From positions 1 to 32,001 of the forward strand of contig DAIOXD010000002.1 of NCBI GenBank assembly GCA_036758145.1: DNA of 32,001 nt, read 5' to 3'. Under the pieces are notes generated by a model that was not told where the DNA came from, made no database searches, and saw only the letters and a program-made list of their open reading frames with translations. A program made the translations under genes and the position numbers. Positions 5,102-24,530 of the stretch are shown here, one piece after another. Position 1 is the stretch's first letter, and each line of letters opens with the position of its first letter. This DNA is from Candidatus Limnocylindrales bacterium. Lineage in GTDB: Bacteria > Chloroflexota > Limnocylindria > Limnocylindrales > CSP1-4.

Positions 5102-6667
5102 TCAATAGTCGGTCGGGACGCCGCCCTCGGCCACGCGCCGGGCAACGAACGCCTCGAGCTCCTCGGCGATGGCGGGGTCCATGGGCGGCGGCTCGTACGC
5201 CGCGAGCAGTTCCTTCCAGATCCGGTTGGCCTTCTCGGGGACCTGTGGCGAACCGGCCTCTTCCCAGGTCTCGTAGTTGCGCCAGTCGCTGAGCATCGGC
5301 TTGTGGAAGGCGGTCCGGTAGCGCGATTGCGTGTGTTCCGCCCCGAAGAAGTGGCCGCCCGGGCCGACCTCCCGCATCGCGTCGAAGGCAAGGGTCTCGT
5401 CGTCGACCACGACCGGGTCGAGGAATGCCTCGACCATCCCGAGCAGCTCGGCGTCGAGGATCATCTTCTCGTAGCTCGCGTGGAGCCCGCCCTCCATCCA
5501 GCCGGCGCCGTGCATCAGCAGGTTGACGCCGCCCATGATCGCTCCCCACAGCGAGAAGACCGATTCATAGGCCGCCTGGGCGTCGAGCGCGTTGGCCGCG
5601 CAGACATTGGACGATCGATACGGCACGCCGTATCGCCGCGCTAGCTGGCCACCGATCATCGCGGTCCGCATGTATTCGGGCGTCCCGAACGCCGGCGCGC
5701 CCGACTGCATGTCGACATTCGAGGTGAATCCGCCGTAGATGACCGGCGCGCCTGGGTTCACCGCCTGGGTCAGGACCATCCCGGCCAGCGCCTCGGCATT
5801 CTGCTCGGCCAGGGCGCCGGCCAGGGTCACCGGGGCCATCGCGCCCGCGAGCGTGAACGGCGTGATGCAGACGACCTGGTTGTGCGCCGCGAACTCCATG
5901 ATCCCCTGGAGCATCGGTGCATCGAGCCGCAGCGGCGAGCTCGAGTTGACGACGGTGAAGACCGACGGCTCGCGGTCGATCGTGGCGGCGTCGACGCCGC
6001 GCGCGATCCGGACCATCTCGAGGACGTCGACGTTCCGCTGGCGGCCGAGGCTGTAGCAATGGATCGCCTTGTCCATCAGCGTCAGTGCGTCGAACGTCGC
6101 GTAGAGGTGGCGGACGCCGTGGTGCAGGTCGACGGGCTCGACCGGGTAGCCCGACAGGAAATGGATCGCGTTGAGCGACTGGGCCAGGCGCAGGAGGTTC
6201 TGGTAGTCGACTCGGTTGCCGATCCGCCGGCCGCGGTCCAGGTCTGACACATTCGGCGGGCTGCCGACGGTGCCGAAGGCGACCCAGTCACCACCGAGCT
6301 TGACGTCGTAGTCCGGGTTTCGAGCGTGCAGCGTGAAGCTCGCGGGAGCCGTCTTGATCAGGTCGGTGACCATCGCCGGGTCGAATCGGACGCGCTGCGT
6401 ACCCGGCGCGATCTCCGCGCCCGCGACGCGCAGGACCTCGCGCGCGTCGGCGTCGAGGAAGTCCATCCCGATCTCGGACAGGACCCGCAACGACCCCGTG
6501 TGGATCGACTCCAGCTCGTCGGCCGACAGGATCTCGGTCCTCGGGTAGCGCATCCGCGGCTGGGCCCACGGCCGCTGCATGGGCGCCGCGCTCCGGGCGT
6601 GGCCTTCGCGGCCCCCACCCCGCCGTCGGCGGAGTCCCTCGCCCGCGGCCGTGTCCAGATCCGTCAC
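5102..6667 (-). CDS. Trimethylamine methyltransferase (MttB) family protein, non-pyrrolysine class (paralog 1)
   Basis: ORF 5102..6709 (-) is continuous with no in-frame TAG. MttB-family core segments align clearly with the second paralog at 20925-22472: ITPFTLAGAMAPVT, NPGAPVIYGGF, MQSGAPAFGTPE and GAGWMEGGL. I chose GTG 6667-6665 as the start because GGAGG lies 4 nt upstream. This start also gives an N-terminus (VTDLDTAAGEGLRRRRGGGRE) that parallels paralog 2 (MAVPDLEHPAVRRGRAARQ). Alternative starts are GTG 6709 and ATG 6580. Confidence 0.85.
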   Translation of the reverse strand: MTDLDTAAGEGLRRRRGGGREGHARSAAPMQRPWAQPRMRYPRTEILSADELESIHTGSLRVLSEIGMDFLDADAREVLRVAGAEIAPGTQRVRFDPAMVTDLIKTAPASFTLHARNPDYDVKLGGDWVAFGTVGSPPNVSDLDRGRRIGNRVDYQNLLRLAQSLNAIHFLSGYPVEPVDLHHGVRHLYATFDALTLMDKAIHCYSLGRQRNVDVLEMVRIARGVDAATIDREPSVFTVVNSSSPLRLDAPMLQGIMEFAAHNQVVCITPFTLAGAMAPVTLAGALAEQNAEALAGMVLTQAVNPGAPVIYGGFTSNVDMQSGAPAFGTPEYMRTAMIGGQLARRYGVPYRSSNVCAANALDAQAAYESVFSLWGAIMGGVNLLMHGAGWMEGGLHASYEKMILDAELLGMVEAFLDPVVVDDETLAFDAMREVGPGGHFFGAEHTQSRYRTAFHKPMLSDWRNYETWEEAGSPQVPEKANRIWKELLAAYEPPPMDPAIAEELEAFVARRVAEGGVPTDY

Positions 6668-6766
6668 GAGGCCTCCACTGGATGATGATTCGGACGCCAG
6701 GCTCGTCACCCGATGGCGCCCGACGACGACCGACCGAATGCTAGCCGGAAACGCCCGGAGTCGGCC

Positions 6767-8470
6767 CTAGTCCTCGCGCCCGAGCCCCCGGACGTGGTTG
6801 ATGAGGGTCAGGATCAGGTAGACGAGCAGGACGAGCAGTCCCACGTGGACCCAGGCGTAGGGCATCCAGTCCGGCAGGGTCCGGCGTGTGTCATCCGGGA
6901 AGACGAGGACGAGGTAGAGGAGCGCCCCGACGAGCAGGACCGACAACCCGAGCGTCACCGCGCGACGCCGCGCGGTCCGCATCCGCCGGCGCAGGCCGAA
7001 CAGCGATGCCTCCGCCTCGATGATCACCGGCTGCTGGGTCTCGAGGAACTCCATGAATTCGAACGCGCGCTGCAACCGCCCGCTGCCCGCATAAAGCCGG
7101 TCGAGCGTCCGCCGCGGGTCGAGCCATGACACGCCCTGTTGTCGCGTCAGGCGCCGCACGAAGCGGCGCACGTTCTCCGGCAGGTCGTACTCGACCGCGA
7201 GCTGGTGGCGGAGCGTTCCGAGCGTCACCAGCATCTTGAGGTAGGCGACGATGCTCGACGACATCGCCAGCTGCTGATCGCGGATGGTCTCGAGGATGTC
7301 GACGGCGAGCTTCGAATACGGGTTCTCGGTGTGGCGAGCCGGGCCGGGCGCCCCCATCGTCACGCGGGAGCGGTCGGCGACCGTGTCGTACAGGAACGCC
7401 TGGTGGACCCGGATGAGCTGCCAGCGGGCGGCGGCGGTGTCGGTCGCCGGTCCCGGGGCGAGCCAGCGCATCAGCTCTCGAACGGCCGCCTCGACCTCGC
7501 CACGGAACAGGAGCCAGCTATAGCGGGTCAGCGAGTCCCGGACCCGGTCGGGGAGCTGCCCGACGATCCCGAAGTCCACGTATCCGATGGCGTCGTCCTC
7601 GAGCACGAACAGGTTGGCCGGGTGCAGGTCGGCATGGAAATAGCCGAACACGAACACCTGGTTGAGCATGTTCCAGTCGAGGTGGCGCACGATGCGGTCG
7701 AGGTCGTGGCCCTGGGCCGCCAACGTCTCGAGGTAGGCGAGGTTCCCCTCGCGCCGGGCGATCATGACCTCGATGAGCGGGATGCCATCGATGAATTCGG
7801 TGGTGAGGACCCGCGATGTCGTGTAGTCCCGGTAGACACGGGCGATCCGCTCGAGCTTGTCGCCCCGGGAGTGCTGGTAGAGCAGGACGGCCTGGCGCGC
7901 TTCCACGAGATAGTCGAGCTCGTCGGCCGTCCAACGCGCGAACTCGTCGATCACCTCGCGGCTCCTCGTCGCCCCGAACAGGTGGGTCCAGTCGAGGACC
8001 CAGGTCGTCGCGTACATCAGGTCGATGTCGGCCTGGAGGGTTGCGCGGATCCCCGGCCGCTGGACCTTGACCGCGACCGGCTCACCGCTGTGCAGGACCG
8101 CGCGGTGGACCTGGCCGATCGACGCGGCGGCGAAGGAGGCGTGCTCGAACGAGGCGAAGACGGTCTCCGGCTCGTCGCCCAGCTCCTCGCCGATGATCGC
8201 CCGGACCTCCGAGTACGAGAACGGGGCGACCTGGTTGAGGAGCTTGAAGAGCTCGTCGCAATAGGCCGCCGGGAGCAGGTCGAAGCGCAGCGCGAGCATC
8301 TGCCCCAACTTGATCCAGGCGCCGCCGAGTCGCTCGAATGCGACGCGTACCCGGACGGCGCCGCTGCGGCGATCGGACCCGGGAGCGTGGAGCGCGGGCA
8401 GGATGAAGAACGTGACGAAGACGGTGAATACGTGCCAGACCCGGCGTGGATGCCTGAGCAGCGTTCTCAC
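6767..8470 (-). CDS. ABC1/UbiB (AarF) atypical kinase family protein with C-terminal transmembrane helices
   Basis: ORF 6767..8470 (-), GTG start. Motifs seen: KLGQMLALRFDLLP, AAASIGQVHRA, VAVKVQRPG, HADLHPANLFV and YVDFGIVG. The hydrophobic C-terminus is LSVLLVGALLYLVLVF...VHVGLLVLLVYLILTLI. Confidence 0.85.
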   Translation of the reverse strand: MRTLLRHPRRVWHVFTVFVTFFILPALHAPGSDRRSGAVRVRVAFERLGGAWIKLGQMLALRFDLLPAAYCDELFKLLNQVAPFSYSEVRAIIGEELGDEPETVFASFEHASFAAASIGQVHRAVLHSGEPVAVKVQRPGIRATLQADIDLMYATTWVLDWTHLFGATRSREVIDEFARWTADELDYLVEARQAVLLYQHSRGDKLERIARVYRDYTTSRVLTTEFIDGIPLIEVMIARREGNLAYLETLAAQGHDLDRIVRHLDWNMLNQVFVFGYFHADLHPANLFVLEDDAIGYVDFGIVGQLPDRVRDSLTRYSWLLFRGEVEAAVRELMRWLAPGPATDTAAARWQLIRVHQAFLYDTVADRSRVTMGAPGPARHTENPYSKLAVDILETIRDQQLAMSSSIVAYLKMLVTLGTLRHQLAVEYDLPENVRRFVRRLTRQQGVSWLDPRRTLDRLYAGSGRLQRAFEFMEFLETQQPVIIEAEASLFGLRRRMRTARRRAVTLGLSVLLVGALLYLVLVFPDDTRRTLPDWMPYAWVHVGLLVLLVYLILTLINHVRGLGRED

Positions 8471-9095: not shown

Positions 9096-9252
9096 TGACC
9101 CCGGGTCAACGATTCGGGCCCAAAGGTCCCCGGCGAGACCGCAAGACTCCGGTGTGGCGACCCAGGGTCAACAAGCCGCGAACTTCGGTGGGCCGATCCA
9201 CCCGTGGTATACCAACCGTCCTCGTGCCAAAAGTGTTGATCGCGGGGTCAAC
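9096..9252. promoter_or_regulatory. Three related palindromic sites, consensus TGACCC-N-GGGTCA, in one intergenic region
   Basis: Site 1 is tgaccccgggtca at 9096-9108, with 6-1-6 arms. Site 2 is gacccagggtc at 9159-9169, with 5-1-5 arms. Site 3 is a degenerate copy, gttgatcgcggggtcaac, at 9235-9252. All three share GGGTCAAC (9103-9110, 9165-9172, 9245-9252). GTCAAC also abuts the start codon at 8966-8971. Confidence 0.3.
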
Positions 9253-9283
9253 GCGTCAGCCGGTCCTCCCCGCGGTTCGTCGC

Positions 9284-10804
9284 TCAGTCGCCCGACAGGT
9301 CGAACCAGGTCGTCTTGAGCTGGGTGTAGCCGTCGAGGGCGTGGAGGCCCTTGTCGCGCCCGAAACCGGACTGCTTGTAGCCACCGAAGGGCACGGTGAT
9401 GTCGGCCGTGTCGAAGGTGTTGACCCAGACCACCCCGGCCCGGATCCGGCGCGAGAGCCGGTGCGCGCGATTGACATCGCGGGTCCACAGCCCGGCGGCC
9501 AGACCGTAGGGCGAATCGTTGGCGATGGCCACCGCCTCTTCCTCGTCCTCGAACTCGGTGACGGTCAGGACAGGGCCGAAGATCTCCTCGCGCGCGACCC
9601 TCATGGAGTTGGCCACGCCGTCAAGGATCGTCGGCTCGATGTAGTAGCCGCCACTCTCCCCGCGGACCTGCTCGCCGCCGGCGACGACCCGGGCGCCTTC
9701 CTCGCGACCGAGATCGACGTAGCCGAGGACCTTCGCCAGCTGGCGGTCGTCGACGATCGACCCGAGCCGGGTCCTGGGATCGAGCGGCTCGCCTGGAGCA
9801 AGCTTCCGACCGAGCGCCGCGACGCGCTCGACAAGCTCCTCGCGGACCGAGCGATGGACGACGAGGCGCGAGCCCGCGTTGCAGGTCTGCCCGCTGTTGT
9901 AGAAGATCCCCCAGCCGATCGCGGAAGCGGCCGCCTCGAGGTCGCCGACGTCCGCCAGCACGACCTGCGGGCTCTTGCCACCGAGCTCGAGCGAGATGGC
10001 CTTGACGTCGGACTCCCCGAGCGCGCGCAGGAGTGACTTGCCGACCTCCGTCGAGCCCGTGAAGGCGATCTTGTCGACGTCCGGGTGCCGGGCGAGCGCG
10101 TCGCCGAGGACCGAGCCCGGGCCGGTCACCACGTTGAGGACACCGTCGGGGAGTCCCGCCTCCGCGGCAAGCTCGGCGAGGCGGAGCGCCGTCAGTGGCG
10201 ACTGACTCGCGGGCTTGAGCACGACCGAGTTACCGGTCGCTAGCGCGGGCCCGATCTTCCAGGCCGTGATGATCATCGGGTAGTTCCAGGGCACGATCGC
10301 GGCGACCACCCCGATCGGCTCGCGGGTCACCAGGGAGAGGGCGTCGGGCCCGGTCGGCCCGACCTCGCCGTACGCCTTGTCGATCGTCTCGGCGTACCAC
10401 TGGAGGGTCGTGGCGGCACTCGGGATGTCGACTCGGAGCGTGTCGCGGATCGGCTTGCCGACATCGAGCGACTCGAGCAGCGCCAGCTCGTCGGTGTGCT
10501 CGCGGACGAGCTCCGCGAGCCGCAGCAGGACGGCCTTGCGTGCCATCGGCGGCTGGTCGCTCCAGCGGCGATCATCGAACGAGCGACGGGCGGCCGCGAC
10601 GGCGCGATCGACGTCCTCGGGGCCGCCCTCGGCGACGGCCGCGATCCGGGAGCCGTCGCGCCCGGCGATGTCGTCGAAGGTCGCCCCCGAGGCCGCCGGC
10701 ACGAAGCGGCCGTCGACGAACAGCTCGGTCCGGGGCGCGATCGACGCGGCGCGAGCGATCCAGTCGGCCGCGGTCGGCCCCGCGGGTTTCGTCTCAGCGC
10801 TCAC
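9284..10804 (-). CDS. NAD(P)-dependent aldehyde dehydrogenase, 506 aa
   Basis: ORF 9284..11626 (-) is a read-through artefact. The real start is GTG 10804-10802, which forms a GTGA overlap with the upstream stop 10801-10803 and has GGAGGT 7 nt upstream. ALDH motifs seen: VPWNYP, FTGSTEVGK, LELGGKSP (catalytic Glu), GQTCNAGSR (catalytic Cys) and EEIFGPV. Confidence 0.9.
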   Translation of the reverse strand: MSAETKPAGPTAADWIARAASIAPRTELFVDGRFVPAASGATFDDIAGRDGSRIAAVAEGGPEDVDRAVAAARRSFDDRRWSDQPPMARKAVLLRLAELVREHTDELALLESLDVGKPIRDTLRVDIPSAATTLQWYAETIDKAYGEVGPTGPDALSLVTREPIGVVAAIVPWNYPMIITAWKIGPALATGNSVVLKPASQSPLTALRLAELAAEAGLPDGVLNVVTGPGSVLGDALARHPDVDKIAFTGSTEVGKSLLRALGESDVKAISLELGGKSPQVVLADVGDLEAAASAIGWGIFYNSGQTCNAGSRLVVHRSVREELVERVAALGRKLAPGEPLDPRTRLGSIVDDRQLAKVLGYVDLGREEGARVVAGGEQVRGESGGYYIEPTILDGVANSMRVAREEIFGPVLTVTEFEDEEEAVAIANDSPYGLAAGLWTRDVNRAHRLSRRIRAGVVWVNTFDTADITVPFGGYKQSGFGRDKGLHALDGYTQLKTTWFDLSGD

Positions 10805-11910
10805 GAGGCGTACCTCCGGATCGCCGCTTCGTCGAGGACGATCCCGAGACCGGCCGCGGCGGGCACCCGCAGGATCCCGTCCGGTCCCGGTCGGATCGGC
10901 TCGGCGAGCATGAAGTCGCGCCGTTCCGGGGTCCAGCCCGGCGGGTCGTACGGGAACTCGATGAACGGTCCACCACCGACGCCGGCCGCGACGTGCAGGT
11001 TCGCGAGCAGCCCGATCCCGTTGGTCCAGGTGTGAGGGGTGTACCAGCGGTTGCGCGCCAGGGCGAGCTCCGCGATCATGCGCCCGCGCAGCATCCCGGC
11101 GGCGAGGACGGCGTCGGGCTGATGGACGTCGAACGCGTCGGCGTCGACCGCCGCCACGAGTTCGCCGAACGTCCGGGTCATCTCGCCGCCGGCGATCCGG
11201 ACCCCGGGCACCGAGGCTCGGAGCGCGGCCAGACCGCGCAAGTCCGTCCCCGCGAGCGGCTCCTCGACCCACAGGACGTCGTACTCGGCCAGCTGGACGG
11301 CGATCGCCCGGGCCGCCACCGGGTCCAGCGAGCCCGACACATCGCCTGCCATCCGCCAGCCCTGGTTGAGATCGACCATGATCGCCATCGAATCGCCGAC
11401 GGCATGGCGCGTCGCCGCGACCGCCGCGACGCCTTCCTCCAGCCGGCGCGGATCGACCCGGATCTTGAGCGCCCCGAACCCTTCCTCGCGCAGCCGGAGC
11501 GCGGCCTCGGCCCGGGCCGCCGGCGCGAGGAGCATCCCGCACGAGGCATAGGCCGGGATCCCCTCGCTGGCCCCGCCGAACAGCGTGGCGACCGGAAGGC
11601 CCGCGACCTTGCCGATGATGTCCCACAGCGCGACCTCGAGCGGCCAGTAGCGACCGGCGTGGAAGTCGATCGTCTCGAGGATGCGGACCTGGCGAGCGAT
11701 CGCGAGCGGGTCGGTGCCGATGAACAGGTGCTCGAAGGCTTCGAAGCCGTCCATCGTGTCGCCCGACCCGACGCCCACGACCCCTTCATCGGTCTCGACC
11801 CGCACCACGGTCGCCGCGAACGACCGTCGCGGGATCGGATCCCAGGCGGCCGCGAAGGGCGGATCGAGGGGCATGACCAGGCGATCGAGTCGGATCCCCG
11901 TGATGCGCAT
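10801..11910 (-). CDS. Enolase-superfamily enzyme (mandelate racemase / muconate lactonizing enzyme family), 369 aa
   Basis: ORF 10801..12051 (-), trimmed to ATG 11910-11908 (MRITGIRLDRLVMPLDPPF). The capping domain is followed by barrel motifs LKIRVD, MVDLNQGW, LWVEEP and IAGGE, which match the acidic metal-ligand pattern of the superfamily. Confidence 0.8.
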   Translation of the reverse strand: MRITGIRLDRLVMPLDPPFAAAWDPIPRRSFAATVVRVETDEGVVGVGSGDTMDGFEAFEHLFIGTDPLAIARQVRILETIDFHAGRYWPLEVALWDIIGKVAGLPVATLFGGASEGIPAYASCGMLLAPAARAEAALRLREEGFGALKIRVDPRRLEEGVAAVAATRHAVGDSMAIMVDLNQGWRMAGDVSGSLDPVAARAIAVQLAEYDVLWVEEPLAGTDLRGLAALRASVPGVRIAGGEMTRTFGELVAAVDADAFDVHQPDAVLAAGMLRGRMIAELALARNRWYTPHTWTNGIGLLANLHVAAGVGGGPFIEFPYDPPGWTPERRDFMLAEPIRPGPDGILRVPAAAGLGIVLDEAAIRRYAS

Positions 11911-11946
11911 CTTCGGAGTATTGCGCAGCCGCTCGCGGGGAGTTCG

Positions 11947-11975
11947 TTGACAGTCAGGTGGACCGCCAGTACCGT
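11947..11975 (+). promoter_or_regulatory. Candidate housekeeping-sigma promoter for the ABC importer operon
   Basis: TTGACA (11947-11952), then a 17-nt spacer, then TACCGT (11970-11975, TAnnnT type). It lies about 120 nt upstream of the SBP start. Confidence 0.35.
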
Positions 11976-12028
11976 TCCGAGACATTCGCTTTTCGGCCGG
12001 AGGAACAGGATGGCCGGGGAGCGGTGTG

Positions 12029-12040
12029 CGTTCGCGAACG
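12029..12040. promoter_or_regulatory. Perfect 12-bp palindrome CGTTCGCGAACG, candidate operator
   Basis: Read directly from the sequence. It lies in the divergent intergenic region between the enolase/ALDH operon and the ABC importer operon, downstream of the candidate promoter. Confidence 0.3.
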
Positions 12041-12096
12041 ATGCCTGCCAAGTGCTCGTCGCCGCCAGGTGGATCCGCCCGGAGGAGTCACAAACG

Positions 12097-13809
12097 ATGG
12101 ACTATCCCCAGCTGGACAAGGTCCGCGGTTCGACAACGCCACTGCAGCTCGACACGGTCGAGGCGTTCGTCCGCGGCAAGTTGAGTCGTCGCGAATTCAT
12201 CGGGCGCGGCCTGGTGGTCGGGCTCTCGATGGCGTCGATCAGCGCCGTCATCGCCGCGTGCGGCGGCGGCACCTCAAGCACCGCGCCGAGCACCGGCGGC
12301 GGCGGCAGCACGGCTCCGACTTCAGGCGCCAGCACCCCGCCCGCCTCGGCGACCGCCGGAGGCACGATCCGGATCGCGCTCCAGCGCCCGGTCAAGGTCG
12401 ACCCCATCGCGATGCAGGACCTCGGCGGCTACGGCATCACCGCTCAGTCGTTCGAGTTCCTGTGCACGCTCGACAAGAACGGCAGCGACATCGCCCCTGG
12501 CCTCGCTCTCAAGTGGACGCCCAATGCCGACGGCAGCGTCTGGGTCTTCGACCTCCGTCAGGGCGTCATGTGGCAGGACGGCACCCCGTTCAGCTCGGCC
12601 GACGTGGTGGCCACGATGGAACGCCTCGTGGCGGCCGGCAACTCCGGCCTCAAGGGCGTCATCGACAAGGGCTCGGCGGTCGCGACCGATGCGAACACGG
12701 TCACCTTCAACCTCGTGAGCGCCAACGGCAACTTCCCATACCTCGTCTCGGTCTTCACCGCCCAGGCGCTCATCACCCCGGCCAACTACGCCGCCGGGAC
12801 GACGTTCGACGCGAAGCCGAACGGAACGGGCGCCTGGAAGCTGACCAGCTACGACGTCACACAGGGTGCCAAGTTCGCGCGGAACGACGCCTGGTGGGGC
12901 GGCAAGACCCCGCTCGACACGACGGAGTTCATCTTCTTCGATCAGACGTCGGACATGGTCACCGCCTATCAGGGCGGGCAGGTCGATGCGATCGTGCAGT
13001 TCGACGTCCTCTCGGGCAAGAGCCTGCTGGACGATGCGAACACGACGGTCATCGCGACCAAGGCCGCGCTCCACCGGCAGATCTGGATGCGCTGCGACAA
13101 GGGCCAGTTCGCGAAGAAGGAAGTCCGCCAGGCGCTGGCCTACACCTTCGACCGGCCGGCCCTGATCCAGCAGCTCTTCCAGGGACGGGCCGATCTCGGC
13201 AATGATCACGTCATCGCCCCGATCTACCCGTACTTCGACTCGTCGATCCCGCAGCGGGTGCAGGACATCGAGAAGGCCAAGTCGCTCCTGTCCACGGCCG
13301 GCGTGACCAACCTGTCGGCCACGCTCCACGCGGGCCAGCTCCTCGAGATCCCCGATCTCGCCGTGCTGCTCCAGAGCAACGCCGCGAAGGCCGGGATCAC
13401 CCTGACCCCGGCGGTCGAGAGCCTGACGACGTTCTACGGCGCGCAGTGGTGCCCCGACAAGCCGGCCGATCCCCCGTGCTCCGGCTCGGCCGAGCTCGGC
13501 ATCGTCGACTACGGCCACCGCGCGACCCCGGACGTCTACCTCAACGCGGCCATCAAGACCAAGGGCGTCTGGAACGCGTCGCAGTACTCGTCGCCCGAAT
13601 TCGATGCCGCCTTCACCGAGTTCCAGAAGGCGGTCGGTGTCGACGCCCAGAAGGCGGCCTGCACCAAGATCGAGACGATCATGAACGAGGACGTCCCGAT
13701 CGGCCTCCCGTACTTCTACAACTACCTCGCCGGCAGCGCCAAGGCGTACACCGGGATCTACTCGAGCGCGCTTGGCCAGATGTTCTTCTCCGCGGCTTCC
13801 AAGGCCTGA
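12097..13809 (+). CDS. ABC transporter substrate-binding protein, family 5 (peptide/nickel/opine type), Tat-signal lipoprotein
   Basis: ORF 10540..13809 (+), trimmed to ATG 12097, with GGAGGAG at 12081-12087. It has a twin-arginine motif and lipobox, LSRREFIGRGLVVGLSMASISAVIAACGGG, followed by a Ser/Thr/Pro/Gly linker. The mature domain is typical of SBP_bac_5 (LALKWTPNADGSVWVFDLRQGVMWQDGTPFSSADV). An alternative in-frame TTG start lies at 12181. Confidence 0.85.
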   Translation: MDYPQLDKVRGSTTPLQLDTVEAFVRGKLSRREFIGRGLVVGLSMASISAVIAACGGGTSSTAPSTGGGGSTAPTSGASTPPASATAGGTIRIALQRPVKVDPIAMQDLGGYGITAQSFEFLCTLDKNGSDIAPGLALKWTPNADGSVWVFDLRQGVMWQDGTPFSSADVVATMERLVAAGNSGLKGVIDKGSAVATDANTVTFNLVSANGNFPYLVSVFTAQALITPANYAAGTTFDAKPNGTGAWKLTSYDVTQGAKFARNDAWWGGKTPLDTTEFIFFDQTSDMVTAYQGGQVDAIVQFDVLSGKSLLDDANTTVIATKAALHRQIWMRCDKGQFAKKEVRQALAYTFDRPALIQQLFQGRADLGNDHVIAPIYPYFDSSIPQRVQDIEKAKSLLSTAGVTNLSATLHAGQLLEIPDLAVLLQSNAAKAGITLTPAVESLTTFYGAQWCPDKPADPPCSGSAELGIVDYGHRATPDVYLNAAIKTKGVWNASQYSSPEFDAAFTEFQKAVGVDAQKAACTKIETIMNEDVPIGLPYFYNYLAGSAKAYTGIYSSALGQMFFSAASKA

Positions 13810-13827
13810 CATCGCGGCGCGTGGGGT

Positions 13828-13866
13828 CGGCGGTTCGTCCCGTCGGCCCCGCGGCGCGAACCGTCG
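13828..13866 (+). other. Imperfect stem-loop between the SBP and permease genes
   Basis: cggcggttcg (13828-13837) pairs with cgaaccgtcg (13857-13866), giving 10 bp including one G-U pair and a 19-nt loop. No U-tract follows. The permease SD GGAGGG starts at 13871. Confidence 0.25.
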
Positions 13867-13887
13867 CCCAGGAGGGTGAAGTAGGCG

Positions 13888-14841: not shown

Positions 14842-15731
14842 TGGATACGGCCCTCAACCCCGCGCCCATCGTCCCGACCGTGACGCCGCTCCGCTCGGAG
14901 CGGAGCCAGGCTCGCCGCGAGACGGCCAGGCAGCTCCTCCGGCGGCCGGCCTTCATCATCGGCAACATCGTCATCATCGGCTGGATCATCTGTGCCGTGC
15001 TCGGCCAGCGGATCACGCCGTACGACCCGCTCAACGACTTCTCGCTCGGTCACCAGCCGCCCAGCGTCGACCACCTGATGGGCACCGACCGCATCGGCCG
15101 CGATGTCCTTTCGCGGGTGATGGTCGGCTCGCGGGACGTCCTGATCGTGGCGCCCCTGGCCGCACTGTTCGGCGTCGTCGCCGGGACCCTGCTGGGGCTG
15201 ATCATGGGCTACTACCGGGGCCTGGTCGACGACATCCTGAGCCGCCTGGTCGAGGCATTCCTCGCCCTTCCGGTGATCCTCATCGCGTTATTGACGCTGG
15301 TCGTGCTCGGGTCGTCGCCGCTCGTGGTGGTCTTCGTCGTCGGCATCCTGTTCACGCCTATCGTCGCGCGCACGGTGCGTTCGGCCGTCCTGACCGAGCG
15401 AAACCTCGACTACGTGACGGCCGCCAAGCTTCGCGGTGAGACCGGCTTCTTCATCCTGTCGCGCGAGATCTTCCCCAACGTCCTGGGCCCGACGGTGGTC
15501 GAGCTGACCGTCAGGTTCGGCTACGCGATCTTCACGGTCGCGACCCTGTCGTTCCTCGGCGTCGGCATCCAGCCGCCGTCGGCGGACTGGGGCCTGACGG
15601 TGAGCCAGGAGTACACGAACATGATCTCGGGCGTCTGGTGGCCGACGCTCTTCCCGGCCCTGGCGATCGCGAGCACGGTCGTCGCGGTCAACCTCATCGC
15701 GGATTCGCTCCAGTCGGTGCTCAACGAATGA
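14841..15731 (+). CDS. ABC transporter permease (DppC/OppC-like)
   Basis: ORF 14841..15731 (+). The start overlaps the upstream stop (TGATG). It has multiple TM segments and the conserved loop DYVTAAKLRGE. Confidence 0.9.
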   Translation: MDTALNPAPIVPTVTPLRSERSQARRETARQLLRRPAFIIGNIVIIGWIICAVLGQRITPYDPLNDFSLGHQPPSVDHLMGTDRIGRDVLSRVMVGSRDVLIVAPLAALFGVVAGTLLGLIMGYYRGLVDDILSRLVEAFLALPVILIALLTLVVLGSSPLVVVFVVGILFTPIVARTVRSAVLTERNLDYVTAAKLRGETGFFILSREIFPNVLGPTVVELTVRFGYAIFTVATLSFLGVGIQPPSADWGLTVSQEYTNMISGVWWPTLFPALAIASTVVAVNLIADSLQSVLNE

Positions 15732-17878
15732 CCGCCGGGTTCGAGCCCACGCCCGCTCCCGAGCCGAGGCGGGAGCCCGCGATGGCCGGCGGCGCGACCG
15801 CGGCCGCGACCGCTGCGCCCGCCGCGCCCGCCGCCGCCCTGCGCATCGAGGACCTGTCGCTCTCGTATATCGTGCGCGGCATCCCTCGTCCGGTCCTGCG
15901 CGGGGTCTCGTTCGAGGTCCGGCCGGGTGAGTCGTATGGGCTGGTCGGCGAGTCCGGCTGCGGCAAATCGACGACGGCCTACGCCGCGGTCCGCTACCTC
16001 CCCCGAAATGGCGTCATCACCGGCGGTCGCATCCTGGTCGATGGCAACGACGTGACGAAGATGTGCGAGGAAGAGGTCCGGAACTTCCGGATCCACCAGG
16101 CCTCGATGGTCTACCAGGACCCCGGCGCCGCGCTCAACCCCACGACGAAGGTCGGGCCACAAGTCGTCGAGGCGTTCACCATCCTCGGCCAGAACAAGAA
16201 GCAGGCCCAGGCGAACGCGCTCAAGGCGCTCAAGCGGGTCCAGATCGCCGACCCCGAGGCGGTCGCCCAGCGCTATCCCCACCAGCTTTCCGGAGGGATG
16301 CAGCAGCGCGTCGTCATCGCCATCGCCCTCGCCTCGGACCCGAAGCTGCTCGTGCTCGACGAACCGACCACCGGGCTGGATGCCACGGTCGAGGCGAGCG
16401 TCCTCGATCTCGTGCGGACGCTCCAGGCCGAGACGAACGCCGCGGTCCTGCTCATCGCCCACAACCTCGGCGTGATCCGGACGATCTGCGACCGGGTCGG
16501 CGTGATGTACGCAGGCAAGATCGTCGAGGAGGGCGACGCGGCGTCGGTCTTCGAGCATCCGGAACACCCGTACACGCTCGGGCTCCTGCGCTCGCTCCCG
16601 CGCCGCGGGGTCCGCAAGACCGAGCGCGCCCTCGCGACGATCCCCGGCAATCTGCCCCAGATCGGGACGCCGCTGCCGACCTGCGTCTTCGTCGATCGCT
16701 GTCCGCTGGCGGACGAGCTGTGCCGGACGGTCATCCCGCCGATCGTCGAGGTCGGACCAGGCCGCTGGACCCGCTGCCATCATCGCGATCGCCTCGGCCA
16801 GATCGTCGAGCCGCCGGCCGTCGTCGGCCAGGACACCGTCCACGGCGACCGGGCGCTCTCGATCGAGGAGGTCTCGAAGACCTTCCACCAGAGCGGGCAC
16901 GACGTGCCGGCCCTGGTCAAGGTCAACCTCGAGCTCTTCGACGGCGAGACGCTCGGGCTGGTCGGCGAGTCGGGCTCCGGGAAGTCGACCCTGGCGAAGA
17001 CGCTCCTTGGCATCGAGAGCCCGGATCCCGGCGGCAACCTCGAGCTCGACGAGCACGCCCTTGCAGCGCGGTCGGCCAACCGGCCGACGGACGACAAGCG
17101 CTCGCTCCAGATGGTCTTCCAGAACCCCGACTCGGCGCTCAACCGTGGCTGGACCGCGCGCCACATCCTGTCGCGCTCGGTGAGCAAGCTGACCGGGTTG
17201 AAGGGCAAGGCGGTCAATGAGCGGGTCGACAAGCTGGCGGCCGACCTGCGACTGACCCAGCGGCACCTAGACCTCAAGCCGCGACAGTTGTCGGGCGGGC
17301 TCAAGCAACGTGTGGCGATCGCGCGCGCGTTCGCCGGCGACCCACGGATCGTCGTGGCCGACGAGCCGACGAGCGCCCTGGACGTCTCGGTCCAGGCGGC
17401 GATCCTCAACCTGCTCTCCGAGCTCCAGATCAAGAACAAGACGAGCTACCTGCTGATCTCGCACGACCTGGGCGTCGTCCGCTACCTGGCCGACCGGATC
17501 GCCGTGCTGTATCTAGGGCGGATCATGGAGGTCGGCGATTCCGAGACCGTCTTCCGCGGGCCGAACCACCCGTACACCGAGGCGCTGCTCTCCGCGGTCC
17601 CGAACGTGGACGGCGAGGACCGCAAGCGGATCATCCTCGAGGGCGAGATCCCGAGCCCGGCCAATCCTCCGAGCGGCTGCGTCTTCAACACCCGCTGTCC
17701 GCGCGTCATCCGCGGCCTGTGCGAGGTGGTCGAGCCGCCGCTCGTCGAGGTCGAACCCGGCCACCAGATGAGCTGCCACATCCCGATCGAGGAGCTGCGC
17801 GTCCTCCAGCGCAAGGCGCCGCCACCTCGCGAGGACGTGCCGCCGGAACTCGCCGATCCGGCCCTGCTGGCCGACTGA
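15728..17878 (+). CDS. Fused double ATP-binding protein of the peptide/opine-type ABC importer (DppD-DppF-like fusion), 716 aa
   Basis: ATG 15728 forms an ATGA overlap with the permease stop. There are two complete nucleotide-binding domains. The first has GESGCGKST, LSGGMQQR and LLVLDEPTTGLD. The second has GESGSGKST, LSGGLKQR and IVVADEPTSALD. Each is followed by an oligo_HPY-type Cys-rich tail: CVFVDRCPLADELCRTV...RCH and CVFNTRCPRVIRGLCEVV...SCH. Confidence 0.9.
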   Translation: MTAGFEPTPAPEPRREPAMAGGATAAATAAPAAPAAALRIEDLSLSYIVRGIPRPVLRGVSFEVRPGESYGLVGESGCGKSTTAYAAVRYLPRNGVITGGRILVDGNDVTKMCEEEVRNFRIHQASMVYQDPGAALNPTTKVGPQVVEAFTILGQNKKQAQANALKALKRVQIADPEAVAQRYPHQLSGGMQQRVVIAIALASDPKLLVLDEPTTGLDATVEASVLDLVRTLQAETNAAVLLIAHNLGVIRTICDRVGVMYAGKIVEEGDAASVFEHPEHPYTLGLLRSLPRRGVRKTERALATIPGNLPQIGTPLPTCVFVDRCPLADELCRTVIPPIVEVGPGRWTRCHHRDRLGQIVEPPAVVGQDTVHGDRALSIEEVSKTFHQSGHDVPALVKVNLELFDGETLGLVGESGSGKSTLAKTLLGIESPDPGGNLELDEHALAARSANRPTDDKRSLQMVFQNPDSALNRGWTARHILSRSVSKLTGLKGKAVNERVDKLAADLRLTQRHLDLKPRQLSGGLKQRVAIARAFAGDPRIVVADEPTSALDVSVQAAILNLLSELQIKNKTSYLLISHDLGVVRYLADRIAVLYLGRIMEVGDSETVFRGPNHPYTEALLSAVPNVDGEDRKRIILEGEIPSPANPPSGCVFNTRCPRVIRGLCEVVEPPLVEVEPGHQMSCHIPIEELRVLQRKAPPPREDVPPELADPALLAD

Positions 17879-18623: not shown

Positions 18624-18645
18624 GCTCGGACACTCGGCAGTCGGG

Positions 18646-20697
18646 TCATAGCGTCATCGCAATGCGGCGGGCGTCGTAGATGGCGGCATGGATCGATCGG
18701 CTGGCGACGGCGTCGCCGACGCGGAAGAGCTGGTAGGTGCCGTCGGGGTTGACGACCCGGGCCTGAGGCTGGCCGGCGAGATAGGCGCCCAGGTCGAGTT
18801 CGCCGCCATTCGAGGAGCCGTCGCGCAACGCCAGGTAGACCTCGGCGTTCGGGACCGTGCCGTACTCGATCACGACCTGGTCGACGACGCGCTGGGTCGT
18901 GGTTCGCGTGTAGTCGTTCCAGAGGTCGACCTCGAGACGGCGGTCAAGCCTTCGGCGAACCGCGGTCAGCCGGTGATCTGGGGTCAAACGGACACCGGCC
19001 GCATAGAACGACCCGAGATACGCCGGGTAGGCGGTCCCGGTCACCTCCTGGCCGACGTGGCGATCGGGCGTGACGAGCTCCACCGATGAACCGGCGGCGA
19101 CCATCCGCTCGACACACGAAAGCGCGTCCTCGGTGCCGTGGTCGTCGAAGACCAGGACTTCGCCACGTGACGGGCTGACCGACCCGCCGACGATGTCCCA
19201 GGTGCTCACCACGAGGTCCTCGCCCTCGGTCAGTACGGGCATCCGGGGCCGCCCACCGGTCGCGACGATCACCACGTCCGGCGCCAAACCCACCACATCC
19301 GCCGCCTCGGCCACATGGTTGCGCCGCACCTCCACGCCCATGTGCCGGCACTCCCCCGCCAGCCACTCCACGATCCCGATCAGGTCGCCCCGCCGCGCCG
19401 TCGCCCGCGCCGCCAGCCGGATCTGGCCGCCGACCTCTGGCGCCGCCTCGAACAGCGTGACCGAGTGCCCCCGCTCCGCCGCGACCCGAGCCGCCTCCAG
19501 CCCCGCCGGGCCGCCGCCGACCACCACGACCTTCCGGCGCGGCCCCCTCGAGCGCGGCGTCACGTGCGCGATCGTCTCCTCGCGCCCGGTCGCGGGGTTG
19601 TGGATGCACAACGCGTCGAGTCCCTGGTAAAGCCGGTTGATGCACATCGACGCCCCGACGCACGGCCGGATCCGGTCGGCCTCGCCCGCTTCCAGCTTGC
19701 GCACGATGTGCGGGTCGGCCATGTGCGCCCGCGTCATCCCGACCATGTCGAGGAGACCCTCGGTGATCGCGTAGCGTGCCGTCGCCACGTCGGCGATCCG
19801 GGCCGCATGGAAGATCGGCAGGTTCACCCGTTCGCGAAATCGCCCGGCGAACTGGAGGGCGGGCCCGAACGGCGTGCCCATCCCCGGGATGACGTGCGAG
19901 ATCGCCTCGTCGGTGGCGATCGAGCCCTTGACGATGTTGATGAAGTCGATCGTCCCGGTCCGGGCCAGGGTCGATGCGATCTCGAGGCCGTCGGCCTCGT
20001 TCAGCCCGCCCGGGACGTCCTCGCCGCCGGTCATCCGGATCCCGACGATGAAGTCGGGGCCGACCTTCGCCCGGATGGCCTCGAGCACCTCGATCGAGAA
20101 GCGCATCCGGTTGGCGAGCGACCCGCCGTAGCGATCCGACCGTTTGTTGACGAGCGGCGACCAGAACTGGTCGATCAGGTGGCCGTAGGCCTCGAGCTCC
20201 AGGCCGTCGAGGCCGCCTTCCCGACACCGACGCGCCGCCTCGGCGTAGGAGGCGACGACTCGCCGGATATCGCCCTCTTCCATCTCCTTCGGGAACGACC
20301 GATGCGCCGGCTCACGGACCGACGACGACGAGATGGTCGGCAGCCAGTCGCCGTCGTCCCAGACCGTCCGCCGGCCGAGGTGGGTGAGCTGGACCATGGT
20401 CGCGGCGCCGTGCGCGTGCATCCGGTCGGCCATCTGCCGGAACCACGGGATGATGTCGTCGTTGCCGGCGTAGAGCTGGCCGAAGATCGGCGGCGAGTCG
20501 GGTGCGACGTTCGTCGATCCACCGAACATCGACAGCGCGATCCCGCCCTTGGCCTTCTCCTCCTGGTAGAGCTGGTAGCGCAGCTTCGGCTTGCCATCCT
20601 CCGCATAAGCCGGTTCGTGGGCCGTGCTCATGATCCGGTTCCGGAGCGTCAGGTGCCGGAGCTGGAACGGCTGGAGGAGCGGGTCGGCGGCGGTCAT
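18646..20697 (-). CDS. OYE-like FMN / FAD-NAD(P) flavoprotein of the 2,4-dienoyl-CoA reductase / N-methylproline demethylase (StcD-like) family, 683 aa
   Basis: ORF 18646..20745 (-, TTG). I prefer ATG 20697, which gives the N-terminus MTAADPLLQPFQLRHLTLRNRIMSTAHEP. The protein has an Oxidored_FMN barrel (QLTHLGRR, RYGGSLANRMRF). Its Cys motif is reduced to three Cys: CVGASMCINRLYQGLDALC. A Rossmann motif VVVVGGGPAGLEAARVAAERGH follows. Confidence 0.85.
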   Translation of the reverse strand: MTAADPLLQPFQLRHLTLRNRIMSTAHEPAYAEDGKPKLRYQLYQEEKAKGGIALSMFGGSTNVAPDSPPIFGQLYAGNDDIIPWFRQMADRMHAHGAATMVQLTHLGRRTVWDDGDWLPTISSSSVREPAHRSFPKEMEEGDIRRVVASYAEAARRCREGGLDGLELEAYGHLIDQFWSPLVNKRSDRYGGSLANRMRFSIEVLEAIRAKVGPDFIVGIRMTGGEDVPGGLNEADGLEIASTLARTGTIDFINIVKGSIATDEAISHVIPGMGTPFGPALQFAGRFRERVNLPIFHAARIADVATARYAITEGLLDMVGMTRAHMADPHIVRKLEAGEADRIRPCVGASMCINRLYQGLDALCIHNPATGREETIAHVTPRSRGPRRKVVVVGGGPAGLEAARVAAERGHSVTLFEAAPEVGGQIRLAARATARRGDLIGIVEWLAGECRHMGVEVRRNHVAEAADVVGLAPDVVIVATGGRPRMPVLTEGEDLVVSTWDIVGGSVSPSRGEVLVFDDHGTEDALSCVERMVAAGSSVELVTPDRHVGQEVTGTAYPAYLGSFYAAGVRLTPDHRLTAVRRRLDRRLEVDLWNDYTRTTTQRVVDQVVIEYGTVPNAEVYLALRDGSSNGGELDLGAYLAGQPQARVVNPDGTYQLFRVGDAVASRSIHAAIYDARRIAMTL

Positions 20698-20787
20698 CTC
20701 GGGCGTGGCGCCTCGGGGCCTGGCAGTCCCGACTGGACCATCCAAGGTCCTCCAAGGCGGGCCCGATCACACGCTCGCCACGGCTCC

Positions 20788-20802
20788 GTGCCTGATAGGC
20801 AC
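20788..20802. promoter_or_regulatory. Perfect 6-3-6 palindrome GTGCCTgatAGGCAC in the leader of the flavoprotein gene
   Basis: Read directly from the sequence. It lies about 90 nt upstream of ATG 20697 in the 227-nt gap after the MttB paralog 2 stop. Confidence 0.3.
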
Positions 20803-20924
20803 CCAACAGAGCGGAGTGGCATTCGTGGCCGCCTCTCGAGCCGCCAGTGGCGCCTACCAGTCCCCGCCACGACGCCGCCGAGGGCCACGATGGAACCGGC
20901 CCGCATCGCCCAGCCCACGCGGAC

Positions 20925-22472
20925 CTAGACGTCCGAATCCGGGAAGCTCGCCCTGCGCCGATCCAGCCATTCCATCAGCTCGTCGTGGATCGCCTCGTCG
21001 AGGGGCGGCATCTCGTACTCGGCCAGGCGGCGCTTCCAGCGCACGTTCGCCCGCTGGGCGGCGTCGAGCCCGCCGTCGAGCTGCCATTGCTCGAAGCTGT
21101 CGTTGTTGGAGATCTCGGACCGCCAGAACGCGTCCTCGAAGTTCGCCAGCGTGTGGGGCGACCCGAGGAAATGCTGGCCCGGCCCGCCGGCGAGCATGGC
21201 GTCGAGCGCGAAGCCGTTGTCGGTCACGTCGACGCCGCCGATGTAGGCGCCGGTCATCGACGCCTGATCTTCGTCGAGGATGAATTTCTCGTAGCCGATG
21301 GCCAGCCCGCCCTCGAGCCAACCCGCGGTGTGGAGATTGAAGTTGACGCCGGCCTGCATCGTGGCGAGATAGCTGATCGCGCTCTCGTAGGCGGCCTGGT
21401 AGTCGGGCAGCTTGGACGCCGTGAAGTTGCCCCCGCTCCGGAACGGGACGCCGAGCCGGCGAGCGAGGGCAGCGAGGACGAACAGCACAAGTTGGGGTTC
21501 CGGGGTGCCGAAGGTGGGCGCTCCGGACTGCATCGACATCGACGAAGCGAACGAGCCGAAGATGACCGGCGCGCCCGGCTTGACGATCTGGCAGAATGCC
21601 ATCCCCGCCAGCGCCTCGGCAAGCGTCTGGGTGGCCTGCGCCGCGACCGTCACGGGCGCCATGGCGCCACCGAGGATGAACGGCGTGATGAGCATGATCT
21701 GGTTGTTCTCGGCGTAGACCTTGGCCGAGCCGAGCATGTTGAAGTCCCACGACATCGGCGAGTTGGCGTTGGCCAGGCCCATGATCACGTGCTCGCGTTC
21801 CATCGTCTCGGCACCGAACACGATCCGCGCCATCTCGACGGAATCCTGGGCGCGGCTCGGGTGGGTCACCGAACCCATGAACGCCCGGTCCGAGTAGCGG
21901 ATGTGGCTGTAGACCATCTCGAGATGGCGCTTGTTGACGGGGAGGTCGACCGGCTCGCACAACGTCCCGCCGCCGTGGTGGAGGGTGCGGCTCGTGTAGG
22001 TCAGCTTCACGAAGTTACGGAAGTCCTCGATGGTGGCGTAGCGACGGCCCTCGTCGAGGTTGTGGATGAACGGCGAGCCATAGGTCGGCACCAGGACCAT
22101 GTACGGGTCGCCGATCTGGACGCTCCGGGCGTCGTTGCGGGCGCGCTGGGTGAAGATCTTGGGCGCGGTGGCCGTGACGAGCGCCCGGCACATGCCACGC
22201 GGGAAGCGGACGCGGGTGCCCGTCACGTCCGCGCCGGCGCCGCGGAAGATCTCGACCGCATCGGGGAAGTTGACGATCTCGATCCCGACCTGCTCGAGGA
22301 GGGTGTCGGCGTTGGCCTCGATCTGCTCGAGCCCGCCGGTCGAGATGACCTCGACGGGTGGCAGCTTGCGGGTCAGATACGGGAGCGTGTCCATCGTCCG
22401 AGCCAGGCGCTCGCTCTGTCGCGCGGCCCGACCGCGCCGTACGGCGGGGTGTTCGAGGTCCGGGACAGCCAT
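20925..22472 (-). CDS. Trimethylamine methyltransferase (MttB) family protein, non-pyrrolysine class (paralog 2), 515 aa
   Basis: ORF 20925..22586 (-), trimmed to ATG 22472, with GAGGAG 5 nt upstream. There is no in-frame TAG. The MttB core is ITPFILGGAMAPVT, KPGAPVIFGSF, MQSGAPTFGTPE and TAGWLEGGL. By eye it is roughly half identical to paralog 1. Confidence 0.9.
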   Translation of the reverse strand: MAVPDLEHPAVRRGRAARQSERLARTMDTLPYLTRKLPPVEVISTGGLEQIEANADTLLEQVGIEIVNFPDAVEIFRGAGADVTGTRVRFPRGMCRALVTATAPKIFTQRARNDARSVQIGDPYMVLVPTYGSPFIHNLDEGRRYATIEDFRNFVKLTYTSRTLHHGGGTLCEPVDLPVNKRHLEMVYSHIRYSDRAFMGSVTHPSRAQDSVEMARIVFGAETMEREHVIMGLANANSPMSWDFNMLGSAKVYAENNQIMLITPFILGGAMAPVTVAAQATQTLAEALAGMAFCQIVKPGAPVIFGSFASSMSMQSGAPTFGTPEPQLVLFVLAALARRLGVPFRSGGNFTASKLPDYQAAYESAISYLATMQAGVNFNLHTAGWLEGGLAIGYEKFILDEDQASMTGAYIGGVDVTDNGFALDAMLAGGPGQHFLGSPHTLANFEDAFWRSEISNNDSFEQWQLDGGLDAAQRANVRWKRRLAEYEMPPLDEAIHDELMEWLDRRRASFPDSDV

Positions 22473-24528: not shown

Positions 24529-24530
24529 GA

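Follow-up and report, generated by a model that had tools for sequence, protein, structure and literature searches.

What accepts the methyl group from two MttB-superfamily methyltransferases when no corrinoid protein, reductive activase or methyl-tetrahydrofolate (methyl-THF) transferase is encoded in their vicinity? The question is raised by a 32,001-nucleotide stretch of DNA (the window; GenBank assembly GCA_036758145.1, contig DAIOXD010000002.1, positions 1 to 32,001) that is part of contig C2 in a 1.85-Mb metagenome-assembled genome (MAG) of 250 contigs. The MAG (G000) originates from soil, is 64% complete with a G+C content of ~70%, and belongs to Candidatus Limnocylindria/Limnocylindrales in the phylum Chloroflexota; the window sequence occurs in sequencing runs of metagenomes from soil, permafrost and biocrust. 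The two methyltransferases, MttB1 and MttB2, very probably serve as substrate-specific 'MT1' modules of a dispersed, aerobic MtgBCD-type system of cobalamin-dependent quaternary-amine demethylation, as judged from comparison of their sequences and gene contexts with those of relatives.

The MttB paralogs and a distant corrinoid operon

Genes in the window were mapped by GC3-filtered calling of open reading frames (ORFs), and every credible ORF was scanned against Pfam. MttB1 (5102..6667, minus strand) is a 521-amino acid (aa) protein that initiates at a GTG codon (MTDLDTAAGEGLRRRR) and matches PF06253 (MTTB) with 670 bits across profile positions 1–500. MttB2 (20925..22472, minus strand) comprises 515 aa and matches positions 2–500 of the same profile with 683 bits. 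With a cut-off of 25 bits, both are full-length members of the MttB superfamily; the start codons are consistent with those of orthologs, and the paralogs share 39.9% identity. Neither gene possesses an in-frame stop codon, TAG included. The column occupied by pyrrolysine in 7XCL is Phe in MttB2 by direct alignment and Val in MttB1, at the position equivalent to MtgB L317, and the scores of the two proteins against TIGR02369, the equivalog for pyrrolysine-type trimethylamine methyltransferases, were 324 and 229 bits versus a cut-off of 525. MttB1 and MttB2 are thus members of the non-pyrrolysine class, as the initial annotation had stated. Close orthologs of both are numerous in Limnocylindria contigs in which they bear generic names only: every one of the best 120 of 8000 scored matches to MttB1 is at least 82% identical, and most of the listed matches to MttB2 are at least 80% identical. 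The nearest solved structure to MttB2 is PDB 4YYC (607 bits, 55% identity), a 'putative trimethylamine methyltransferase' with no assigned function which we take to be from Sinorhizobium meliloti. MttB1 is only 39% identical to 4YYC.

A six-frame search of the whole genome with PF02310 produced five matches, none of which is on C2, and the Pfam scan detected no RACo or Pterin_bind domains in the credible ORFs of the window. These surveys bear out the absence of corrinoid protein, activase and methyl-THF transferase from the 32 kb that had posed the original puzzle. The genomic matches include MetH on C121, a small B12 domain of mutase type on C154 and an MtgC-type corrinoid protein on C185 (positions 2–~425, minus strand). 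The last combines a PF02607 cap (59 bits) with a PF02310 domain that bears the motif GDIHDIGKN and is cut by the contig end; its gene is divergent to that of an IclR regulator. The B12-binding_2 cap, B12-binding domain and DxHxxG motif expected of a corrinoid protein therefore occur together outside the window. The 2Fe-2S and RACo ASKHA domains of a RamA-type activase are present in the product of a minus-strand gene on C191 (2015–4039; RACo_C_ter 300, Raco_middle 167, RACo_linker 87 and Fer2 26 bits). On C191, the ramA gene is followed on the same strand by that for a third paralog, MttB3, which has the most canonical PF06253 match (765 bits), and by the start of an MTHFR-like gene. No Pfam matches were obtained for this fragment, whose identity comes from homology to orthologs annotated as MTHFR; it is 52–62% identical to the matching regions of related loci L012, L013 and L049. 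The orthologous gene carries a PF02219 annotation in L092, and the match to this profile in L013 is marginal.

The two contigs were placed in context by comparison with related loci (L012, L013, L049, L085 and L092–L095), among which L013 belongs to G001, one of two near-complete relatives (G001 and G002). Locus L012 is from a close relative of G000: the 141 residues of MtgC that G000 retains are 100% identical, and RamA and MttB3 are 98% and 98.8% identical, respectively. Here a complete operon reads, after the divergent iclR gene, MtgC (233 aa), DUF1638, a small PF13769 protein, a Pterin_bind methyltransferase (300 aa), RamA, MttB3 and the MTHFR-like protein, with scores of 95 (DUF1638), 67 (PF13769) and 98 bits (Pterin_bind), and of 95 (PF02607) and 58 bits (PF02310) for full-length MtgC. 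The same operon is evident from precomputed Pfam labels in L092 where it adjoins a DMGDH-like gene and genes for ETF alpha and beta. C185 and C191 are collinear on L012 in the same orientation with ends at 7773 and 9999, leaving a 2,225-bp gap that is covered by no other G000 contig. Contigs from the soil run that best contains the window sequence (~9–14x) span most of this gap and display the same 5–8% divergence from L012. Sequencing depth at the end of C185, which coincides with the conserved B12 motif, peaks at 535–900x in the best soil run, and across the corresponding interval L012:7685–7921 the depth in four soil runs rises from ~10–60x to 110–900x. The assembly break is attributed to this spike: a B12 domain common to many community members probably interrupted C185. 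C185 and C191 are one operon that was split during assembly of G000, as their sequences align on L012. An MTHFR paralog is thereby linked to the carrier, as is DUF1638, which was seen in L012 and L092 and is expected by extension in G000. All the named genes were observed in G000 except those for the pterin methyltransferase, DUF1638 and PF13769 proteins; the structure of the operon and its distance from the window genes were observed in relatives.

In G001 and G002, the orthologs of MttB2 and MttB1 are located on the same chromosome 72–93 kb downstream of the MttB3 gene of the operon, and are spaced 16–17 kb apart as in the window. Each relative harbors at least four MttB paralogs, and the ortholog of MtgC is the one B12-binding_2 protein that is common to all three relatives. 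From these genomes, therefore, one MtgC-type carrier appears to be matched with at least four MttB paralogs. The fourth paralog in G000, MttB4 (C103:698–2299, minus strand), is highly divergent, with a PF06253 score of 270 bits and 25–30% identity to the other MttB proteins.

A maximum-likelihood tree was constructed with the MttB paralogs, their orthologs, 4YYC and MtgB of Desulfitobacterium hafniense. The MttB2 clade is sister to the clade of operon-linked MttB3, to which MttB2 is 65.5% identical. Both clades nest among 4YYC and the operon-linked MttB proteins of Proteobacteria and Actinomycetota, and D. hafniense MtgB forms the sister group. In L092, the operon-linked MttB (P0238) is itself the basal member of the MttB2 clade. 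MttB1 forms a separate clade whose sister is the second MttB of gammaproteobacterial RamA loci, and in L085, from a Gammaproteobacteria MAG, an MttB1-type gene is immediately upstream of genes for MtgC, MTHFR, Pterin_bind and RamA proteins. Members of both window lineages are thus encoded, in other genomes, in physical linkage with the corrinoid genes. Methyl transfer from MttB1 and MttB2 to MtgC is suggested comparatively by the adjacency in L085 and by the operon-linked member of the MttB2 clade in L092.

These linkages bear directly on whether MttB1, MttB2 or both instead methylate THF, perhaps through the adjacent GcvT proteins, or another non-corrinoid acceptor as a corrinoid-independent branch of the superfamily. 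The lack of corrinoid genes within 32 kb and the folate-binding GcvT modules that adjoin MttB1 are circumstantial points in favor of this proposal. It is nevertheless hardly credible in view of the complete corrinoid operon in the genome and in all relatives that were checked, as well as the positions of the MttB-type genes in L085 and L092. Moreover, the GcvT domains of DMGDH/SARDH-family enzymes capture formaldehyde equivalents that arise from flavin-dependent oxidation, not methyl groups. The characterized superfamily members described in PMC13080624 and PMC12478193 all methylate a corrinoid. Among the acceptors that the initial annotation had entertained, a corrinoid protein encoded elsewhere is borne out by the C185/C191 operon, whereas direct transfer to THF and an acceptor of a new kind received no support. 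The puzzle of an MttB without methyl acceptor is dissolved, and no evidence for a corrinoid-independent MttB emerged from the window, the genome or the relatives.

The intergenic region from which mtgC and iclR diverge includes a perfect 8-3-8 palindrome, GGTTCCACATGGTGGAACC (core GTTCCACNNNGTGGAAC), at C185:451–469 and L012:7309–7325. The palindrome is single-copy in 28 related loci (L012 and 27 others) as well as in C185 of G000, and always adjoins the iclR gene, even in L092 in which this gene is at the opposite end of the operon. The repeat is probably the operator of the IclR regulator, as its position indicates. No 9-mer sharing of note was detected with intergenic regions of the window, and regulation of the window genes and the mtgC operon through a common IclR operator is not suggested by the palindrome search. 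An operon for a corrinoid protein and activase elsewhere in the genome, co-regulated with the window genes, had been put forward at the outset as the finding that would undo the puzzle; as regards presence, it is there in the MtgC gene of C185 and the RamA gene of C191.

Active-site residues and the Arg-rich amino terminus

In D. hafniense MtgB, glycine betaine is bound by Y97 and F356 through cation-pi interactions and by R312 and H348 at the carboxylate, and mutagenesis established R312 and H348 as crucial to catalysis (JBC 2026, PMC13080624). R312, and less so H348, is conserved in the active enzymes MtcB, MtpB, MthB and MtyB, but the aromatic pair is not (PMC13080624). In the alignment, MttB2, MttB3 and 4YYC share Tyr at the position of Y97, Arg at R312, His at H348, Gly at F356, and Trp at position 352. 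MttB1 differs in having Gly or Val in place of Y97, with Arg, His, Gly and Trp at the other positions. The Trp residue at 352 is conserved throughout the aerobic clade, 4YYC included. Thus, neither window paralog has the full Y97/R312/H348/F356 complement that would denote MtgB in the strict sense: the carboxylate-binding residues are retained but not the two aromatics. With these residues, MttB1 and MttB2 should bind an acidic quaternary amine. Because the MtgB motif is incomplete, strict MtgB identity is not claimed and substrates are not assigned; glycine betaine is still a possible substrate because the whole aerobic clade has the same residue pattern. In MttB4, by contrast with the window paralogs, the positions of Y97, R312, H348 and F356 are occupied by Ser, Gln, Ser and Leu, respectively, and position 352 by Met. 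The loss of all four MtgB binding residues and the absence of an Arg-rich amino terminus suggest that MttB4 probably acts on a different class of substrate.

The same alignment speaks to the proposal that one or both window paralogs are catalytically inactive relics. Neither has the complete set of four MtgB residues and MttB1 lacks both aromatics at the aligned positions, as would be anticipated for a pseudo-enzyme. However, both proteins are full length, retain R312 and H348, and include the Trp residue at 352 that is found clade-wide including 4YYC; close orthologs are very numerous and their operon contexts are conserved; and the aromatic pair likewise is not conserved among active MtcB, MtpB, MthB and MtyB (PMC13080624). 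Decay to inactive relics is accordingly very improbable. The loss of conserved substrate-binding residues, which the initial annotation had considered as a sign of a pseudo-enzyme, does not extend to the carboxylate-binding Arg and His, and for this reason neither MttB1 nor MttB2 would appear to resemble one.

An Arg-rich segment near the amino terminus of both paralogs was correctly pointed out at the outset. The segments span residues 13–21 and 12–19 in the two proteins and approximate to the motif RRRxGGRxxR/H. The motif is not special to this pair: it was found in 115 of 120 MttB1 orthologs and 118 of 120 MttB2 orthologs, as well as in MttB3, the operon-linked MttB proteins of Proteobacteria and Actinomycetota, and 4YYC, and was not found in D. 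hafniense MtgB or in MttB4. As read from these alignments, the Arg-rich amino terminus is a feature of the clade. With its Arg-rich amino terminus, its Tyr, Arg, His and Gly residues and its Trp at position 352, 4YYC matches MttB2, and it is 65% identical to MttB3.

The proposed demethylation route and known systems

In the scheme that is favored here, MttB1 and MttB2 would each bind a carboxylate-bearing quaternary amine and transfer one N-methyl group to Co(I) of the single, shared MtgC protein. A pterin-binding methyltransferase, similar to MtgD or MtgA, would pass the methyl group from MtgC to tetrahydrofolate, the MTHFR-like enzyme would oxidize the resulting methyl-THF, and the RamA-type activase, probably with help from DUF1638, would re-reduce inactive Co(II). 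The shared parts would be supplied by the distant operon (iclR divergent to mtgC–DUF1638–PF13769–pterin methyltransferase–ramA–mttB3–MTHFR). The flavoprotein and GcvT genes beside MttB1 most likely specify oxidative stripping of the remaining N-methyl groups, and the flavoproteins beside MttB2 may do likewise. What we infer is that the two window paralogs physically use MtgC, as well as the nature of the substrates and the part played by the flavoproteins.

Four observations weigh against this scheme. The MtgB glycine betaine motif is incomplete, with Gly at F356 in both paralogs and Y97 lost in MttB1. No match to the iclR–mtgC palindrome was located in the window, even with up to three mismatches. 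Pterin_bind in the G000 assembly is limited to MetH, and a stand-alone pterin methyltransferase was not found there. Finally, the 64% completeness of G000 leaves room for further corrinoid proteins. In relation to the third point, the 300-aa Pterin_bind gene fills the position of the C185–C191 gap in L012, L013, L049 and L092, and contigs from the source sample cover parts of this gene (9217–9470 and from 9523 onward). The relatives and these contigs give good support to the presence in G000 of genes for the pterin methyltransferase, DUF1638 and PF13769.

The fourth point relates to whether the window paralogs use another B12 carrier, for which the candidates are MetH through its B12 domain, free cobalamin, and a corrinoid protein encoded in the 36% of the genome that is absent from the assembly. 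MetH is present on C121, and in G001 its gene directly follows the MTHFR gene of the operon (L013:13724–19668), with S-methyl_trans, Pterin_bind and B12 domains that are fragmented by frameshifts; free cob(I)alamin is used routinely in assays of D. hafniense MtgB (PMC13080624). On the other hand, no further clear MtgC-type protein was detected in G001 and G002, in which the other B12-binding_2 matches are MetH, the extra strong match in G001, and two weak, uncharacterized ones (37–42 bits), and in characterized systems several MttB paralogs are served by one carrier (PMC12478193). Use of another carrier is therefore unlikely, and MtgC of the distant operon is preferred as the acceptor. The betaine-demethylation operon and methionine synthase look to be co-located in the lineage.

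The arrangement has a close counterpart in the aerobic MtgBCD system of Ruegeria pomeroyi DSS-3, Phaeobacter inhibens and S. meliloti, which comprises MtgB, MtgC, MtgD with MtgE, RamA, DUF1638 and MetF2 (Mausz et al., PNAS 2025, PMC12478193). In R. pomeroyi, the genes are scattered and several PF06253 paralogs accompany one MtgC and one MtgD; the system is supported by genetics and proteomics, with the latter implicating two PF06253 MtgB proteins, RamA, DUF1638 and MetF2 (PMC12478193). The supposition that MttB genes usually adjoin those of their partners, on which the original puzzle was based, is outdated in view of such scattered genes in aerobic bacteria. Dispersal has been known in aerobes since 2025 (PMC12478193), and the Limnocylindria locus is a further example. 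The two systems have in common PF06253 methyltransferases, a protein with cap and B12 domains, RamA and an MTHFR paralog, with a pterin methyltransferase and DUF1638 predicted for G000 from its relatives, along with dispersed genes, several PF06253 proteins per carrier, nearby genes for later demethylation steps, an aerobic host and likely salvage of cobamides. They differ in that the host here is a soil member of the Chloroflexota (Ca. Limnocylindria) in which the system is predicted from genes, and that MttB1 falls in a separate clade that is ~40% identical to the MttB3/4YYC type. Furthermore, unlike the R. pomeroyi type, a classical MetH is present in the lineage, encoded beside the operon in a relative, and Limnocylindria thus have no need of a split-methionine-synthase role. 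Marine mtgC reads were assigned to Actinomycetota at ~5%, with almost 30% outside Pseudomonadota (PMC12478193), and mttB-type genes in Limnocylindria MAGs have been noted at annotation level (PMC11264602).

The MtgB/MtgC/MtgA system of D. hafniense (PDB 2QNE and 9YCE; PMC13080624) is more distant. MtgB belongs to the same fold family as MttB1 (347 bits) and MttB2 (364 bits) with 38–40% identity. R312 and H348 are kept in both window paralogs and Y97 in MttB2, but F356 is replaced by Gly with a Trp residue four positions earlier, and Y97 is lost in MttB1. Unlike the D. hafniense system, the paralogs described here bear the Arg-rich amino-terminal extension, occur in an aerobic host, and are not encoded beside the carrier. 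In Eubacterium limosum, MtpB, MtcB, MtyB and MthB have a single corrinoid protein and a single THF methyltransferase in common (PMC8604678; PMC12478193). The likeness to E. limosum is one of logic, in that a single corrinoid carrier is fed by numerous MttB paralogs that are specific for their substrates and encoded at different loci, although such hosts are anaerobic acetogens.

Aerobic respiration in G000 is indicated by a fused CtaA-CtaB protein for heme A synthesis that is encoded on the same contig as MttB4 (C103:4859–6631, minus strand). With regard to cobalamin supply, CbiC, a marker for corrin ring synthesis, was not found in G000, G001 or G002, but CobS is present in G001 and G002 together with a cobalamin riboswitch ~3 kb upstream of CobS, which suggests that cobamides are salvaged. 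B12 use in G000 also encompasses MetH on C121 and the mutase-type domain on C154. As gauged by gene content, at least three B12-dependent systems operate in a lineage that probably obtains its cobamides by salvage. C121 begins inside MetH, and the sequence just past the MetH stop codon matches L012 just past the MTHFR-like gene. Limnocylindria, a class that is widespread in soil and freshwater, carry four conserved orthogroups of MttB, all of which would pass methyl groups to one B12 carrier. With an apparent lack of corrin-ring synthesis, demethylation of soil osmolytes by these bacteria would raise community demand for cobamides, as has been proposed for the ocean (PMC12478193).

Gene neighborhoods of MttB1 and MttB2

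The flavoprotein and GcvT genes that had been remarked upon around the paralogs were recovered as proteins with DAO, FAO_M and GcvT domains, with Fer2_4, BFD and GcvT domains, and, in two cases, with Oxidored_FMN and Pyr_redox_2 domains. All the genes of the MttB1 operon described here are on the minus strand. Its first gene encodes an enolase-superfamily (MR_MLE) protein (10801..12051; PF13378 and PF02746) and is followed by that for an aldehyde dehydrogenase (9284..10780; PF00171, 577 bits) that resembles PuuC (618 bits) and BADH (528 bits), although both NCBIfam scores are below cut-off. Within this operon, the gene directly upstream of MttB1 encodes an ABC1/UbiB-type atypical kinase (6767..8470; PF03109, 202 bits). 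Directly downstream of MttB1 is the gene for a DMGDH/SARDH-like flavoprotein with a folate-binding GcvT module (2611..5073; PF01266 DAO 233 bits, PF16350 FAO_M, PF01571 GCV_T 182 bits, and PF08669), and this is succeeded by that for a SoxA-like protein with Fer2_4 2Fe-2S, BFD-like 2Fe-2S, SO_alpha_A3 and GcvT folate domains (350..2674), which scored 271 bits, below the cut-off, with TIGR01372 (soxA). The MR_MLE, aldehyde dehydrogenase, kinase and DMGDH-like genes are conserved at the same positions in L093 and L094, where the order is iclR (divergent), MR_MLE, Aldedh, hypothetical, ABC1, MttB1, DMGDH-like, SoxA-like, a small ORF, SoxB-like DAO and SoxD. The conserved MttB1 operon fits a stepwise removal of three N-methyl groups, in which the first would be taken via B12 and the rest oxidatively with folate capture. 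The MR_MLE protein was considered as an HpbD-type betaine racemase/epimerase, which would have pointed to (hydroxy)proline betaine, and this was rejected: acid-sugar dehydratases topped the matches in PDB and NCBIfam (~100–110 bits) and no HpbD-like match was obtained. In L085 (1834–5568), the gene immediately before the MttB1-type gene encodes a hydantoinase/oxoprolinase-like protein, a possible hint to the class of substrate in the MttB1-type clade.

MttB2 is flanked by two flavoproteins of the dienoyl-CoA reductase (DCR)/TMADH family, both encoded on the minus strand. The downstream protein, OYE-A (18646..20745; PF00724, 180 bits, and PF07992), is a three-domain FMN/Fe-S/FAD-NAD(P) flavoprotein that scored 210 bits with DCR, 209 with NCR and 166 with TMADH among PDB sequences. 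OYE-A has Glu at the position of TMADH Cys30 and three Cys residues in the Fe-S segment (C-x5-C-x11-C) versus C-x2-C-x2-C-x11-C in TMADH. OYE-B (22537..24528; PF00724, 173 bits, and PF07992), encoded directly upstream of MttB2, scored 242 bits with NCR, 236 with DCR, 183 with histamine dehydrogenase and 171 with TMADH. The scores to enoate and dienoyl-CoA reductases exceed those to TMADH and histamine dehydrogenase, and thus the two proteins are ambiguous candidates as amine dehydrogenases; an N-demethylase role is one that they may have. An ortholog of OYE-B precedes the MttB2 ortholog in L095, whereas OYE-A is not conserved there, a nucleoside hydrolase (IU_nuc_hydro) gene being present instead. 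An MttB–OYE fusion (P0195, 878 aa) was dropped as evidence of coupling as the locus is full of fragmented genes and the fusion most likely is a frameshift artifact of a long-read MAG.

An Opp/Dpp-type ABC importer is encoded on the plus strand between the two groups of genes (12100..17878; PF00496, PF00528 twice, PF00005 twice, and oligo_HPY). The importer comprises a family-5 solute-binding protein whose gene extends to 13809 (the start is approximate), permeases at 13888–14841 and 14841–15731, and a fused double ATPase to 17878. The same type of transporter adjoins the MttB2 ortholog in L095, and the conserved core in that locus consists of the DCR/TMADH-family flavoprotein upstream of MttB2 with the Opp-type importer nearby. 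The convergent intergenic region between the ATPase and OYE-A genes (17879–18645) contains no credible gene or Pfam match, an ORF at 18061–18477 belongs to no family, and an Rfam scan of the window produced no matches.

The MttB1 and MttB2 orthogroups are good candidates for discovery of new substrates because their conserved gene contexts are well defined. It is conceivable, if somewhat short of an even prospect, that at least one window paralog has a substrate that is new to the MttB superfamily and heads a hybrid aerobic line in which the first methyl group is removed via B12 and folate and later ones by flavoprotein oxidation. In the MttB1 clade, this idea draws on the loss of both MtgB aromatics and on a fixed operon with an enolase-superfamily enzyme, aldehyde dehydrogenase, UbiB-type kinase, DMGDH-like protein and Sox-like set. 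In the MttB2 clade, it draws on the DCR/TMADH-family flavoprotein that always precedes the methyltransferase and on the adjoining Opp-type importer. If correct, a hybrid demethylation line would exist in abundant soil Chloroflexota that apparently are unable to make corrinoids.

When compared with L093 and L094, the segment of the window at 12052–24530 is an inserted block between the MR_MLE and LPG-synthase genes that takes the place of iclR, and it contains the Opp-type ABC importer, OYE-A, MttB2 and OYE-B.

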